Source of the DNA: Robinsoniella sp.
GTDB lineage: Bacteria > Bacillota > Clostridia > Lachnospirales > Lachnospiraceae
Direction: 5' to 3'
NCBI GenBank assembly: GCA_022788205.1
Contig: JALEVQ010000081.1
Coordinates: 27,278-91,277, forward strand
Length of the DNA stretch: 64,000 bases
Below the pieces are notes generated by a model. That model was given only the letters and a program-made list of their open reading frames with translations. It was not told where the DNA came from and did no database searches. Below, one piece after another: positions 9,338 to 20,532 of this stretch (its first letter is position 1; the number at the start of each line of letters is the position of its first letter). Made by a program: the position numbers and the translations under genes.

Positions 9338-9889
9338 TTACTGTTCCAGATATTTCTTGCGCCCTAACTCATACAGGTTATTGCCTTCACAGTCAATAAT
9401 TACAACCAGCGGCATTTCCTCCACATACAGTTTTCTCAGAGCCTCTGCTCCCAGATCCTCGTATGCTATCAGCTCTGCACTTTTGATACATTTTGCGAGA
9501 AGTGCGCCTGCCCCTCCGATTGCTCCAAAGTAGACACCGCTATATTTTTTCATCGCTTCCACCACTTCTGGAAGGCGAGCTCCTTTTCCAATCATACCTC
9601 TTGCACCTACTGACATCATTGTCGGCGCATAGGCATCCATACGACCGCTGGTCGTCGGACCTGCTGATCCGATCACCTGACCTGGTTTTGCAGGCGTTGG
9701 TCCAACGTAATAGATCGTCGCATCGGTCGGGTCAAAAGGAAGTTTTTCTCCTCTTGCCAGCGCCTCACACATTCTCTTATGTCCCGCATCACGAGAAGTA
9801 TAAATGGTGCCTGTCAAATATACGGTATCGCCTGCGTGGAGTGTCTTTGCCAATTCTTCTGTCAATGGCAGTGTAACATGTTTTTCCAT
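9338..9889 (-). CDS. class I (Fe-S) fumarate hydratase, beta subunit (FumB/TtdB-like)
   Basis: 183 aa. The sequence IYTSRDAGHKRM...IYYVGPTPAKPGQVIGSAGPTTS is typical of the Fe-S hydro-lyase beta chain. Confidence 0.8.
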   Translation of the reverse strand: MEKHVTLPLTEELAKTLHAGDTVYLTGTIYTSRDAGHKRMCEALARGEKLPFDPTDATIYYVGPTPAKPGQVIGSAGPTTSGRMDAYAPTMMSVGARGMIGKGARLPEVVEAMKKYSGVYFGAIGGAGALLAKCIKSAELIAYEDLGAEALRKLYVEEMPLVVIIDCEGNNLYELGRKKYLEQ

Positions 9890-9890
9890 C

Positions 9891-10733
9891 TTAGATCACC
9901 TCCGTTTTGTGGCGTGTCACATGGCAGTTGATATTGATGGCGCACGGCATACCTGCGATATGAGTCGGCATCGTCTCAATATTCAGACCGATTGCCGTCG
10001 TTTTTCCTCCGAAGCCCTGAGGACCGATGCCCAGCTGATTGATTTTCTCCAGCATCTCTTTCTCCAGATCTGCGTAGAATGGATCCGGGTTGGAAGAGTC
10101 GATCGGGCGCATCAGCGCTTTCTTTGCAAGCAGTGCCGCTTTGTCAAAGGTGCCGCCGATACCTACACCTACCACCATAGGCGGACACGGGTTTGGACCT
10201 GCTGTCTCCACTGTCTCGATGATAAAGTCCTTGATTCCCTGAAGTCCTGCCGATGGCTTGAACATACGGATCGCACTCATATTTTCGCTTCCAAATCCCT
10301 TCGGACCTACTGTTATCTTAATCTGCTCTCCTGGCACAATCTCTGTGTACAGCATTGCCGGGGTATTATCCCCTGTGTTGCCGCGGCGCACTGGATCCTT
10401 CACAACCGATTTTCTCAGATATCCTTTGTCATAGCCACGGCGCACACCTTCATTGACAGCCTCGCTGAGATCTCCGCCGACCATGTGGACATCCTGACCG
10501 ATCTCAAGGAAAACACATGCCATGCCAGTATCCTGGCAAATCGGCACACACTCTGCGTCTGCGATCTCAAAGTTCTCAATGATCTTGTCAAGCACGCCCT
10601 TGGCGATCTCGCCGTCCTCGCAGGCACGGCAGTCCCGGATGGCACATTTTACATCCTCTGGAAGGTGCTCATTGGCAGCGATACAGAGACGTTCCACAAC
10701 ATCTGTGATCTGCTTTACATCAATTTCACGCAT
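9891..10733 (-). CDS. class I (Fe-S) fumarate hydratase, alpha subunit
   Basis: Contains the CQDTG motif. The start is taken at MREIDVK. It is coupled to the beta subunit. Confidence 0.8.
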
Positions 10734-10748
10734 TTTACACACTCCTCT

Positions 10749-18387: not shown

Positions 18388-18773
18388 CTCCTGTATTTAC
18401 GAAATGCACTGACCAGCAGCTGCTGCGGAATCTCGGGATCCAAAAGCTGCGGAATTTCATCCGGAGACAGGTACGTCTCGCCTCTCTGGCGGATCACCAG
18501 CTGTCTTGCCGCATCGATCAGCTTGCCCGGTTTTACATCTCTCGGACAGCGCTCCACACATGCAAAACAGGAAAGACATTTCCACAGAGATTTCGAGTTC
18601 ACCAGTGCTTCCACATCTTCATTCACGATATAGGATACAAACTGATGTGGTTTGATATCCATCTCATTGAATGATGGACAGGAGGCGGAACACTTTCCGC
18701 ATTTCATACATTTCAGCGGGTTGACACCGCTGATTTCTTTAATCAGTTCCGTCTGTTTTTTTACATTATTCAC
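18384..18773 (-). CDS. hdrC: heterodisulfide reductase subunit C homolog (HdrC)
   Basis: Two 4Fe-4S motifs, CMKCGKCSASCP and CLSCFACVERCP. Length is 129 aa. Confidence 0.75.
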   Translation of the reverse strand: MNNVKKQTELIKEISGVNPLKCMKCGKCSASCPSFNEMDIKPHQFVSYIVNEDVEALVNSKSLWKCLSCFACVERCPRDVKPGKLIDAARQLVIRQRGETYLSPDEIPQLLDPEIPQQLLVSAFRKYRR

Positions 18774-19567
18774 AGACTCGTCACCTCCTCTTTCACTCCG
18801 AGCGCTTCTGCTAAAAGCTCTGTGAAATAGTAGACTGGAAGCTTTCCATTTCCGTTAGAATTCAGGTTATACATGCACAGCGGACAGGCTGTGATCAGCA
18901 TCTCTGCCCCAAAACCTTCTGCACTGTCCATAATCTTCTCACACATACTTCCGGAAAGTTCTTTTTCTTTCAGAGAAATATATCCGCCACAGCACTCATT
19001 GCGGTATGGATAAATCACCGGTTCGCCGCCGATGGCACGGATAAAATCTTCCATAATCGTCGGATTCTCCGGATTATCGAATTCCATAATCTTTCCCGGT
19101 CTGAGAAGAAGGCATCCATAATATGCCCCGATCTTTTTCCCCTGAAGTGGGTTAACCACTTTTTTCTTCAGCTCATCAAAACCGACACGGTCGCGGAGCA
19201 CTTCGAGGAAATGAATCACCGTCGTTTCTCCAGCATACGGCTCTTCCAGCTGCATATAGTTGTTCGCCCTTATGCGGATGTCCTCCACGTACTTCATGTC
19301 ATCATTTACACGTTTTATCACATGGTGACACGCAGAACACATCGTCACCAAATCCTGTCCTTTTTCTTTTGCCTCATTCAGCGCACGGACAGAAGACAGT
19401 TTTGTGGCAATCTCATCTGAGCCCAGCGGATACACACCGCCGCAGCACTGCCAGTTTTCTATCTCTTCCAATTCGATATCCAGCGCCAAGGCAGAGGCTC
19501 TGGCATAGTCATCCAGTTTTTTTGCCTTTGTTCTCAGCGTACATCCCGGATAATAGCTGTACTTCAT
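18770..19567 (-). CDS. hdrB: heterodisulfide reductase subunit B homolog (HdrB, two CCG domains)
   Basis: Contains YYPGCT...WQCCGG...CSACHH and YYGCLL...ECCGGY...TACPLC. Confidence 0.8.
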   Translation of the reverse strand: MKYSYYPGCTLRTKAKKLDDYARASALALDIELEEIENWQCCGGVYPLGSDEIATKLSSVRALNEAKEKGQDLVTMCSACHHVIKRVNDDMKYVEDIRIRANNYMQLEEPYAGETTVIHFLEVLRDRVGFDELKKKVVNPLQGKKIGAYYGCLLLRPGKIMEFDNPENPTIMEDFIRAIGGEPVIYPYRNECCGGYISLKEKELSGSMCEKIMDSAEGFGAEMLITACPLCMYNLNSNGNGKLPVYYFTELLAEALGVKEEVTSL

Positions 19568-19584
19568 AATCCTGTCGTCCTTTC

Positions 19585-20532
19585 CTACAATTCAATCTGC
19601 GCAATGACTGCCTTGAGCGCATCTGCACTTGCCTGCAGTTTTGCGATTTCCGATTTGTTCATCCGCATAGGAACCTTACCCTGAATACCGTGTGGTCCCA
19701 CCAGCGTCAATGTGCTCAGGCACACATCTTCGATCCCGTACTCTCCGTGCATCATAGAAGATACCGTTGCGATAGAATCCGATGCCGACAACACTCTAGA
19801 GCAAAGCTGGCACACAGAAGTAGCCACTGCGTAGAAGGTTGCTCCCTTGTTTGCGATAATCTGACCGCCGGATTTCTGAACATATGTCAGCATACTGTCT
19901 TTATCGAGTTCCTTGATATCTTTTCCGCGTGCTCTCATCAGCTCATAGAATTCATCTACACTGACTCCTGAAATGTAAGCGCCAGACCACGGAATAAAGG
20001 AAGTGTCGCCGTGCTCTCCAAACACATAAGCGTGAATATTTTTCTGTGCTACCTGGAAATGCTCTGACAATCCAAAGCGCAGACGAGCAGTATCCAATAT
20101 CGTTCCGGAGCCGATAATCTGATTTTCTGGCAAACCAGAAATTTTTGTGAACACATAGGTCATGATGTCCACCGGATTACTTACGATAATGTACAGAGCA
20201 TTCGGCGCTGCCTTTACGATTTCCGGAGTAATACTCTTTAAAATATTGACATTCGTCTGTGTCAGCTCAATTCTTGTCTGACCTGGCTTGCGGGCAATTC
20301 CGGAAGTGATGATTACGATGTCGGAATCCTTTGCATCTTCATACTCACCGGCAATAATGGAGATCGGATCTCGGAAACAGGTTCCCTGCTCAATATCCAT
20401 AACCTCTCCCGCCACTTTTTCTTTGTTGATGTCGATCAAAACGATCTCTGATGCTACGTCCTGTCCAGACAGTGTGTAGGCGATTGTCGCGCCAACACTG
20501 CCGGCACCGATAATGGTAATCTTGCTGCTCAT
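19585..20532 (-). CDS. mdh: LDH-family NAD-dependent malate dehydrogenase (Arg at the LDH Gln102-equivalent position)
   Basis: Contains IIGAGSVGATIAY and GIARKPGQTR. The Arg in this position is the classical MDH-versus-LDH specificity determinant. The gene sits next to fumarase and fumarate reductase. Confidence 0.6.
   Translation of the reverse strand: MSSKITIIGAGSVGATIAYTLSGQDVASEIVLIDINKEKVAGEVMDIEQGTCFRDPISIIAGEYEDAKDSDIVIITSGIARKPGQTRIELTQTNVNILKSITPEIVKAAPNALYIIVSNPVDIMTYVFTKISGLPENQIIGSGTILDTARLRFGLSEHFQVAQKNIHAYVFGEHGDTSFIPWSGAYISGVSVDEFYELMRARGKDIKELDKDSMLTYVQKSGGQIIANKGATFYAVATSVCQLCSRVLSASDSIATVSSMMHGEYGIEDVCLSTLTLVGPHGIQGKVPMRMNKSEIAKLQASADALKAVIAQIEL

Follow-up and report, generated by a model that had tools for sequence, protein, structure and literature searches.

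Fumarate reduction is usually ascribed to membrane-bound, quinone-dependent enzymes, which most Clostridia lack. Here, we describe a gene cluster for a predicted soluble fumarate reductase that appears to be coupled to Flx and heterodisulfide reductase (Hdr) proteins. It is located on the minus strand, at 9338-20532, of a stretch of 64,000 nucleotides (nt) from the genome of Robinsoniella sp. (contig JALEVQ010000081.1, positions 27,278 to 91,277), the whole of which is referred to below as the window. A cluster of this kind, the "succinate operon" of Pseudoclostridium thermosuccinogenes, was reportedly presented in a 2019 preprint by Koendjbiharie and van Kranenburg. As described by Koendjbiharie et al. 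2020 (PMC7282089), it contains a fumarate hydratase gene, seven genes for a Flx-Hdr complex, two for a fumarate reductase and one small hypothetical gene, and fumarate reduction coupled to ferredoxin reduction via Flx-Hdr was proposed. The genes are very highly expressed and ~4-fold co-regulated, five of them were assembled as one transcript unit, and the addition of H2 abolishes succinate formation, which the authors read as ferredoxin coupling (PMC7282089). For the reductive tricarboxylic acid (TCA) cycle clusters of tubeworm symbionts and of Thioflavicoccus mobilis, an electron-shuttling complex encoded by tfrAB, korABCD and flxABCD-hdrABC was proposed by Rubin-Blum et al. 2019 (PMC6315080), and Mitchell et al. 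2024 (PMC11636981) provided expression support for the proposal in the tubeworm symbionts. The first-pass annotation of the window had held archaeal thiol:fumarate reductase to be the only known link between Hdr and fumarate, which is wrong, as these three papers propose others. Its claim of novelty stands only in part: the idea had already been published, and a biochemical characterization was still not found in the literature searched, where the enzymology of an Hdr-linked fumarate reductase is represented by genomic and transcriptomic proposals only. Sequence searches of the PDB with FrdA, FrdB, HdrA, HdrB, FlxB, FlxC and the malate dehydrogenase (MDH) retrieved homologues of the components and no such complex. 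The locus adds to a proposed, biochemically uncharacterized kind of system, and its own features are mdh, class I fumAB, an upstream hydrogenase gene and a riboswitch.

Twelve head-to-tail open reading frames (ORFs) were found on the minus strand, with the same outer limits as in the first-pass annotation, which had counted eleven genes while naming twelve. Searches with Pfam and NCBIfam agree with the gene identities given there. In the direction of transcription, the features are as follows.

19585-20532, minus strand: mdh, NAD-dependent malate dehydrogenase of the lactate dehydrogenase (LDH) family (Ldh_1_N, Ldh_1_C)
18770-19567, minus strand: hdrB, HdrB-like protein with two CCG domains (PF02754) and two complete CCG motifs, i.e., two non-cubane [4Fe-4S] sites
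18384-18773, minus strand: hdrC, HdrC-like 2x[4Fe-4S] subunit (Pfam, NCBIfam)
16390-18387, minus strand: hdrA, subunit with flavin adenine dinucleotide (FAD) and [4Fe-4S] clusters (HdrA2 model, 794 bits; 5ODC_A, 690 bits)
15956-16399, minus strand: mvhD (flxD), MvhD/FlxD [2Fe-2S] adaptor (PF02662, FlpD/MvhD, 183 bits)
14994-15968, minus strand: flxC, FlxC-like iron-sulfur (FeS) protein (Fer4 domain)
13950-14990, minus strand: flxB, FlxB-like FeS protein of the sulfhydrogenase beta/AsrA type (Pfam, NCBIfam)
13096-13950, minus strand: flxA, FlxA-like NAD(P)H flavoprotein with a PyrK-type [2Fe-2S] site (FAD_binding_6, NAD_binding_1, DHODB_Fe-S_bind)
12366-13040, minus strand: frdB, divergent SdhB/TfrB-like protein with one [2Fe-2S] and two [4Fe-4S] motifs
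10749-12353, minus strand: frdA, TfrA-like flavoprotein with predicted non-covalent FAD (FAD_binding_2, PF00890, 235 bits)
9891-10742, minus strand: fumA, class I (Fe-S) fumarate hydratase alpha (Fumerase; NF004885, 420 bits, cut-off 276)
9338-9889, minus strand: fumB, class I fumarate hydratase beta (Fumerase_C; NF005310, 292 bits, cut-off 238)
9231-9279, minus strand: intrinsic terminator 3' of fumB that ends the operon, stem of ~21 bp followed by a U-run (folding, z -5.1)

The gaps between the twelve genes range from -13 to +55 nt. Translation of mvhD begins not with the GTG at 16498 but with the ATG at 16399, which follows a GGAGG ribosome-binding site; fumA likely starts at the ATG at 10733, and the gene call in the source record is 280 amino acids (aa). 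A simple terminator scan detected no terminator-like site on the minus strand within the cluster; it also overlooked the one behind fumB, which has a long loop and was recovered by folding. Thus, the genes lie within a single terminator-bounded unit, with no indication that hdr/flx and frdAB belong to separate transcription units. None of the 12 proteins contains a membrane segment (no hydrophobic 19-residue window above the threshold), in agreement with the earlier description of FrdAB as lacking a membrane anchor. The best explanation of the locus seems to be one operon for the route oxaloacetate to malate to fumarate to succinate, predicted to be quinone independent and wholly cytoplasmic.

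The operon of P. thermosuccinogenes has the same order, hdrB-hdrC-hdrA-mvhD-flxC-flxB-flxA-frdB-frdA, and very similar sizes. There, frdA (781344-782946) is ~1.6 kb compared with 1,605 nt here, frdB (782958-783633) is ~675 nt in both, and five genes span 5,348 nt there and 5,292 nt here (further sizes there are 325 nt and 784 nt). The homology is judged from gene order, sizes and the authors' annotation, using the coordinates in the supplement. The two operons differ at their ends: in P. thermosuccinogenes, a class II fumC comes first and a small hypothetical gene last, whereas the window has mdh first, class I fumAB last, and the hydrogenase gene and a cobalamin riboswitch upstream. The tubeworm symbionts and Thioflavicoccus are alike in having a Tfr-type fumarate reductase gene-linked to Flx-Hdr, with direct electron delivery proposed. 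The likeness is one of gene content. The setting there is CO2 fixation by autotrophic Gammaproteobacteria with OGOR, ACL, Pnt and Rnf, whereas here it is a fermentative succinate branch of gut Clostridia.

The arrangement is widely conserved. In a collection with one genome per species, at least 594 loci encode a relative of FrdA, and the best 80 of these, 79 to 92% identical, were analyzed. They come from gut or rumen Lachnospiraceae, Oscillospiraceae, Acutalibacteraceae and others, including the isolates Blautia schinkii, B. intestinihominis, Porcincola intestinalis, Ohessyouella blattaphilus and Lachnospiraceae bacterium 3-2. The order hdrBCA-mvhD-flxCBA-frdBA is collinear with the window in all 80, so the arrangement is not due to chance, and the survey of hdrA-frdA neighborhoods across Clostridia suggested in the first-pass annotation shows that the linkage is kept. 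Wherever there was enough flank (52/52 loci), the full set hdrB-hdrC-hdrA-mvhD-flxC-flxB-flxA-frdB is found 5' of frdA. The ends are more variable, with fumAB 3' of frdA in 62 of the 70 loci where the contig reaches and mdh adjoining hdrB upstream in 32 of 48 with enough flank. At 16 loci (e.g., L024, 7172-8401), although not in the window, a permease of the Asp-Al_Ex family follows directly 3' of fumB. We take this to be the family of the Corynebacterium succinate exporter SucE (aspartate:alanine exchanger/SucE-like), and the permease is a candidate succinate exporter. The frdA gene itself may have a somewhat different history from its neighbors: that of the window is 92% identical to the one at locus L001 and 80% to the one at L064, although L064 is the nearest locus for most other genes (hdrA 97%, mvhD 97%, flxA 95%). 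Two frdA allele types, of ~533 and ~536 aa, occur among the loci, and the pattern suggests gene-level recombination or transfer. Localized recombination inside frdA was rejected, as the differences from L064 are distributed over the length of the gene.

The genes at both ends would supply the substrate. The MDH scores 348.5 bits with the L-LDH family model (cut-off 339) and 281.9 with the MDH model NF004863 (cut-off 283, just missed). In its motif GIARKPGQTR, the Arg aligns with Gln102 of the solved LDH 4M1Q, and Arg102, Arg109, Asp168, Arg171 and His195 are invariant in 33 of 33 cluster-linked homologues. By this alignment, it is an LDH-clade enzyme with the classical Q102R malate/oxaloacetate switch, as the first-pass annotation had assumed.

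FrdA is the predicted catalytic subunit. Its best NCBIfam model is TfrA (NF004900), but the score of 331 bits is far under the cut-off of 718; TfrA is the closest model, yet by this measure FrdA is not a member of the TfrA family. Residue alignment with E. coli SdhA (1NEK) revealed the catalytic set His-Pro-Thr, Thr-Glu-x-x-Arg and the proton-donor Arg (ETRDV), together with His and Arg residues equivalent to SdhA H354 and R399; all are invariant in 85 of 85 homologues. At the position of the flavinylation His (SdhA His45), all 85 have Asn and, because of this, the FAD is predicted to be non-covalent. Non-covalent FAD is, in this family, typical of fumarate-reducing and not of succinate-oxidizing enzymes. 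There is no match to Succ_DH_flav_C (PF02910), and the NCBIfam and PDB alignments end at about residue 510. The N terminus carries a family-specific extension of 90 aa that is common to full-length relatives down to 44% identity. The protein database holds >8,000 FrdA clusters at 90% identity, while clustering at 50% gave few further full-length representatives with the extension. Natural FrdB-FrdA fusions of 709 to 737 aa also exist among database proteins (P0123, P0390-P0393).

Two alternatives bear on this subunit. In the first, the flavoprotein would not be a fumarate reductase at all but an L-aspartate oxidase-like enzyme or a reductase of another enoate, with fumarase and MDH as mere neighbors. 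The catalytic residues are indeed common to NadB, whose NCBIfam models give 216 to 258 bits, and NCBI labels the proteins of the FrdA clusters only "FAD-dependent oxidoreductase" or "FAD-binding protein". However, fumarase genes flank frdBA in the gut Clostridia (62/70) and also in one genome of the Bathyarchaeota, there with malic enzyme, the permease of the succinate-exporter type follows fumB at 16 loci, and P. thermosuccinogenes, which produces succinate, expresses its operon of homologous order highly. To our knowledge, NadB has no FeS partner, which also counts against an L-aspartate oxidase, and we regard a substrate other than fumarate as very improbable. The second alternative concerns the direction of the reaction: succinate might be oxidized with co-oxidation of reduced ferredoxin as the driving force and NAD(P)H as the product (confurcation), given that bifurcating enzymes are in principle reversible. 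The non-covalent FAD (Asn in 85/85) disfavors succinate oxidation, and the co-encoded Arg102 MDH, the exporter-type permease of relatives and the hosts, which are fermentative gut bacteria, also point away from it, so that this direction seems highly unlikely.

FrdB would connect FrdA to the Hdr proteins. It contains the motif CxxxxCxxC...C of a [2Fe-2S] cluster and two full CxxCxxCxxxC motifs, the second of which is not of the 3Fe type; the 12 ligand Cys are invariant in 79 of 79 homologues. Among the Pfam domains that the first-pass annotation proposed to check, PF00890 was confirmed in FrdA, PF02754 in HdrB and PF02662 in MvhD, while PF13085 and PF13183 match FrdB only under their cut-offs. 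Pfam detects no CCG domain in FrdB; these domains reside on the separate HdrB. There, motif 1 reads C9-x31-C41C42G-x34-C77xxC80 and motif 2 reads C152-x39-C192C193G-x34-C228xxC231. The 10 Cys and the two Gly do not vary among the 57 homologues compared, five of them archaeal, so the ligands that could have proved degenerate are complete. The best NCBIfam model of HdrB is SdhE, the CCG-domain subunit of methylmenaquinol:fumarate reductase (135 bits, cut-off 500), followed by HdrB, and the protein matches solved methanogen HdrB with ~113 bits in a PDB sequence search. SdhE in SdhABE/MfrABE is a precedent for a CCG protein partnering SdhAB-type subunits. Those enzymes (type E succinate:quinone reductase and methylmenaquinol:fumarate reductase) are membrane and quinone linked, whereas no membrane segment is present here. 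In HdrC, all 8 Cys are invariant in 55 of 55 homologues.

The comparison with TfrAB of Methanothermobacter is instructive in this regard. Its TfrB fuses an SdhB-like FeS part with two CCG domains, and different parts match FrdB (residues 12-80), HdrC (6-96) and HdrB (189-254), so that the three proteins here look like a split TfrB, with the CCG module as a separate HdrB that also belongs to the HdrABC core. TfrAB takes electrons from coenzyme M (CoM-SH) and coenzyme B (CoB-SH), whereas here the proposed donor is NAD(P)H through Flx, and FrdA adds the 90-aa N-terminal extension. A related possibility is that two enzymes communicate by a thiol/disulfide carrier: Flx-Hdr would reduce some disulfide, either of a small molecule or of a DsrC-like protein, and co-reduce ferredoxin, and FrdAB plus the CCG protein would re-oxidize the thiols and reduce fumarate in the manner of the archaeal thiol:fumarate reductase. 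This would fit TfrA being the closest NCBIfam model of FrdA and CCG motifs that are those of a disulfide-reducing site. But FrdB lacks any CCG domain, the single HdrB encoded leaves no separate thiol-oxidizing site, the cluster has no conserved gene for a carrier or a DsrC-like protein, and hdrC-hdrB adjoin frdB-frdA in distant lineages, suggesting direct contact. We find a thiol carrier quite unlikely.

The remaining subunits form the electron input. HdrA aligns end to end (residues 5-663) with 5ODC_A, the bifurcating HdrA of M. thermolithotrophicus, with every Cys motif in register, including DCSxC, and its architecture is complete: FAD domain, N-terminal cluster, and inserted and C-terminal ferredoxin domains. 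The score of 794 bits with the HdrA2 model is under the cut-off (1100), as the portion corresponding to MvhD is encoded here by a gene of its own. FlxA is of the AsrB/PyrK/sulfhydrogenase-gamma type by its models, with the Cys motif C250-x4-C255-x2-C258-x7-C266. FlxB matches the beta subunit of P. furiosus sulfhydrogenase I (9NEZ_B) with 160 bits in a PDB sequence search, and the C-terminal half of FlxC is related to the C terminus of FdhB in Fdh-Hdr complexes (7BKB_E, 8RVU_E and 9T1S_M, 71 to 81 bits). FlxB and FlxC were considered as close paralogues, and this was rejected, as their alignment is limited to the Fer4 regions. The set has the makeup of a Flx module, an NAD(P)H/FAD/[2Fe-2S] subunit, two FeS subunits and an MvhD-like protein adjoining hdrABC. 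By domain makeup, these are the same seven protein types as in FlxABCD-HdrABC, the NADH dehydrogenase/heterodisulfide reductase of Desulfovibrio vulgaris, reportedly described by Ramos et al. 2015. For that complex, the literature proposes a DsrC-type disulfide as the acceptor and a function in ethanol metabolism; it has no Frd attached, and the order of its published gene names is the reverse of the gene order here. HdrA, HdrB, HdrC and MvhD are also homologous to those of the methanogen MvhADG-HdrABC and Fdh-Hdr complexes (5ODC, 7BKB, 8RVU), in which the acceptor is the heterodisulfide CoM-S-S-CoB, whereas here the proposed acceptor is fumarate via FrdAB and the input NAD(P)H. Reduction of CoM-S-S-CoB by the complex of the window is unlikely, as the hosts are Clostridia.

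A soluble, NAD(P)H-dependent and ferredoxin-reducing (bifurcating) fumarate reductase coupled to Flx-Hdr is, in our judgment, the probable function of these proteins, although with considerable room for doubt. MDH (Arg102) would reduce oxaloacetate, the Fe-S fumarase would dehydrate malate, and the TfrA-like FrdA would reduce fumarate at its non-covalent FAD. FrdA would receive its electrons from FrdB, through one [2Fe-2S] and two [4Fe-4S] clusters and with no membrane anchor, and FrdB would dock on HdrB/HdrC of the HdrABC core. Electrons would enter from NAD(P)H at FlxA (FAD, [2Fe-2S]) and pass by FlxB, FlxC and MvhD/FlxD to the flavin of HdrA. There they would be bifurcated, one going downhill via HdrC, the non-cubane clusters of HdrB, FrdB and the FAD of FrdA to fumarate (~+30 mV) and the second uphill to ferredoxin. 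The overall reaction would be 2 NAD(P)H + Fd(ox) + fumarate -> 2 NAD(P)+ + Fd(red) + succinate. Rnf might then use the reduced ferredoxin (Fd) to build an ion gradient, or a hydrogenase, for instance that of the gene immediately upstream, might consume it, and in this way energy would be conserved or H2 released from NADH. HdrA bifurcates in the Hdr complexes of methanogens and, by the standard potentials, splitting electrons from NADH (-320 mV) between ~+30 mV and ~-450 mV is thermodynamically favorable. The coupling of a soluble FrdAB to Flx-Hdr together with MDH and fumarase, as put forward in the first-pass annotation, fits the in silico tests, while the physical complex, direct electron transfer from HdrB to FrdB, the pyridine-nucleotide specificity and bifurcation to ferredoxin are what we infer from them.

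The Flx-Hdr proteins could also work as a linear FeS/flavin wire in an NAD(P)H:fumarate oxidoreductase that does not bifurcate, leaving ferredoxin oxidized and dissipating the energy. The transfer of electrons from NADH to fumarate is by itself strongly exergonic and requires no coupling. Bifurcation is unproven for some complexes that contain HdrA-like proteins (e.g., Qmo), and the sequence gives no proof that the ferredoxin site is used. On the other hand, seven extra redox subunits, the six cluster motifs of HdrA and both of its ferredoxin-like domains are kept at no fewer than 594 loci of the collection, which is hard to reconcile with a mere wire. In archaea, the same HdrA core receives its electrons from Mvh or an FrhB-like protein, an arrangement also seen in known bifurcating complexes, and the physiology of P. 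thermosuccinogenes points to ferredoxin coupling. For these reasons, we consider a simple wire unlikely.

Distant relatives provide a broader view of the reductase. P0122, 56% identical to FrdA, stands for an archaeal clade annotated as Bathyarchaeota, Asgardarchaeia and Halobacteria. The loci below belong to this clade or to other distant lineages.

L081, Bathyarchaeota: malic enzyme-fumA-fumB-frdB-frdA, with a CCG protein 8 kb off
L082, Asgard (contig JBNGVH010000002.1), 2614-11656: hdrA-mvhD-mvhG-mvhA-hycI-hdrC-hdrB-frdB-frdA
L083, archaeal clade: hdrC-hdrB-frdB-frdA beside an HdrA-MvhD fusion
L084, metagenome-assembled genome named "Halobacteria archaeon": hdrC-hdrB-hdrA-(977-aa flavoprotein)-mvhD-(FrhB-like)-frdB-frdA
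L085, archaeal clade: hdrC-hdrB-frdB-frdA-(HdrA-MvhD fusion)
L090, Anaerolineae: hdrA-(MvhD-FlxC fusion)-flxB-flxA ... hdrC-hdrB-frdB-frdA, with 2-oxoacid:ferredoxin oxidoreductase genes interspersed
L091: several HdrA-like genes, hdrC, hdrB, mvhD and a FlxC-like gene, then frdB-frdA

The recurring core across bacteria and archaea is, by homology, hdrC-hdrB-frdB-frdA plus hdrA and mvhD, and the input module appears to be exchangeable, i.e., Flx for NAD(P)H, Mvh for H2 and, possibly, FrhB-like proteins for F420H2. The Asgard locus, whose hdrA is uncalled in the record and was found by tblastn at 52% identity, apparently represents this fumarate reductase core with H2 as the input. FlxC homologues are located between mvhD and frdB in L084 and L091, and the interspersed layout of the tubeworm symbionts is also seen in the Anaerolineae locus, including the 2-oxoacid:ferredoxin oxidoreductase genes. 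The order at L081 supports fumarate as the substrate, and the FrdB-FrdA fusions and the MvhD-FlxC fusion support contacts between the subunits. The pattern matches that of Mvh-Hdr, Fdh-Hdr and Flx-Hdr, with FrdAB apparently replacing the heterodisulfide as the high-potential end, and the archaeal versions with a hydrogenase input suggest an old, modular design. The fuller version of this idea would be a widespread, modular, thiol-free bifurcating core of hdrC-hdrB-frdB-frdA with swappable Flx, Mvh or FrhB-like inputs, in which the HdrB clusters deliver electrons directly to FrdB and which, in a subset of Lachnospiraceae that includes the present genome, is encoded in a B12-repressed operon, here joined by the inserted [FeFe] hydrogenase gene. 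As a whole, we offer it tentatively, as a possibility with the balance against it.

Several points weigh against a bifurcating, Hdr-fed fumarate reductase. Neither enzymology nor a structure of any family member was found in the literature searched and the PDB. Bifurcation is unreadable from sequence, and HdrA homologues occur in non-bifurcating contexts too. FrdB has no CCG domain of its own, and we know of no case in which HdrB uses its non-cubane clusters merely to hand electrons on to a further FeS protein. Since the catalytic residues of FrdA are common to L-aspartate oxidase, the assignment of the substrate rests on context. The nearest solved relative of FlxB belongs to what NCBIfam names an NADPH-dependent hydrogenase/sulfhydrogenase, and the electron donor may be either NADH or NADPH. 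Finally, adjacency to Hdr genes is not universal, because a FrdB-FrdA fusion at L089 (10001-12130) has no Hdr gene within 10 kb and the CCG protein of the Bathyarchaeota locus is 8 kb away.

If the bifurcating reading is true, fumarate would be a further substrate class for flavin-based electron bifurcation, and the energy gain from the reductive TCA branch in these bacteria would be explained. Succinate is a major gut cross-feeding metabolite and a signaling molecule, and metabolic models of gut succinate and H2 production would change. The operon is present at the 594 or more loci mentioned above, and the closest 80 include cultivable Blautia species. Were the modular core also real, it would amount to a ferredoxin-based "fumarate respiration" for anaerobes free of cytochromes and quinones, from gut Lachnospiraceae to Asgard archaea.

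Upstream of mdh, the window differs from most of its relatives. The features found there are listed below.

22645-22673, minus strand: sigma-70-like promoter before the riboswitch leader (TTGACA-17-TATGCT with TG)
22440-22632, minus strand: cobalamin riboswitch aptamer RF00174 (93.7 bits, gathering 31.5, full model matched)
22337-22371, minus strand: putative expression-platform terminator, a short hairpin with a weak stem followed by TATTTTTAT
20657-22180, minus strand: monomeric [FeFe] hydrogenase, group B1 (TIGR04105, 620 bits, cut-off 450; Fe_hyd_lg_C)

A Rfam scan of 6 loci gave one cobalamin riboswitch, and a custom covariance model run over the 80 loci and the window gave three. At L072 (1535-1740, plus strand, 93.9 bits), the promoter, the riboswitch and a hairpin plus U-run terminator stand directly before the ribosome-binding site of mdh. 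At L051 (2213-2399, plus strand, 91.1 bits), the riboswitch is ~315 nt before hdrB, which is the first gene of the cluster there. None was found at the other 78 loci; the idea that the riboswitch generally accompanies the operon was rejected, and it is a lineage-specific feature. From the promoter through the U-run, the leaders of the window and of L072 are 79% identical. The promoter is homologous to that of L072 (TTGACA..TATTAT) and the hairpin at 22337-22371 aligns with the terminator 5' of its mdh, but in the window the hydrogenase gene then intervenes. This gene was rejected as a conserved member of the cluster, as it is missing upstream in related loci, and it seems to be an insertion, in this lineage, that separates mdh from the B12 leader. 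The 124-nt gap between the hydrogenase gene and mdh contains no convincing terminator (folding z -1.2). Probably, the riboswitch of the window controls the hydrogenase gene and, through read-through, the succinate operon. The [FeFe] hydrogenase is a candidate for the re-oxidation of the reduced ferredoxin of the complex. Cobalamin riboswitches usually turn genes off, and the arrangement suggests, purely as a working hypothesis, a B12-repressed operon that acts as a B12-independent electron sink. The link also suggests that the availability of vitamin B12 tunes succinate output in some gut bacteria. An 88-aa ORF at 22177-22443 (minus strand), which overlaps the expression platform, has no family match and is probably not a gene.

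The neighbors of these genes in the window, also on the minus strand, are of other kinds. On the 3' side of the operon, at 1575-8974, there is a small polyketide/fatty-acid-like cluster with a ketosynthase (817 aa), a GCV_T-like protein of the aminomethyltransferase fold, a carrier protein, an acyltransferase and a 4'-phosphopantetheinyl transferase. On the other side, the gene at 22902-26039 encodes a large glycoside hydrolase of family GH3, into which a PA14 domain is inserted and which also carries an Fn3-like domain; the gene is followed by its own terminator hairpin at ~22790-22840.

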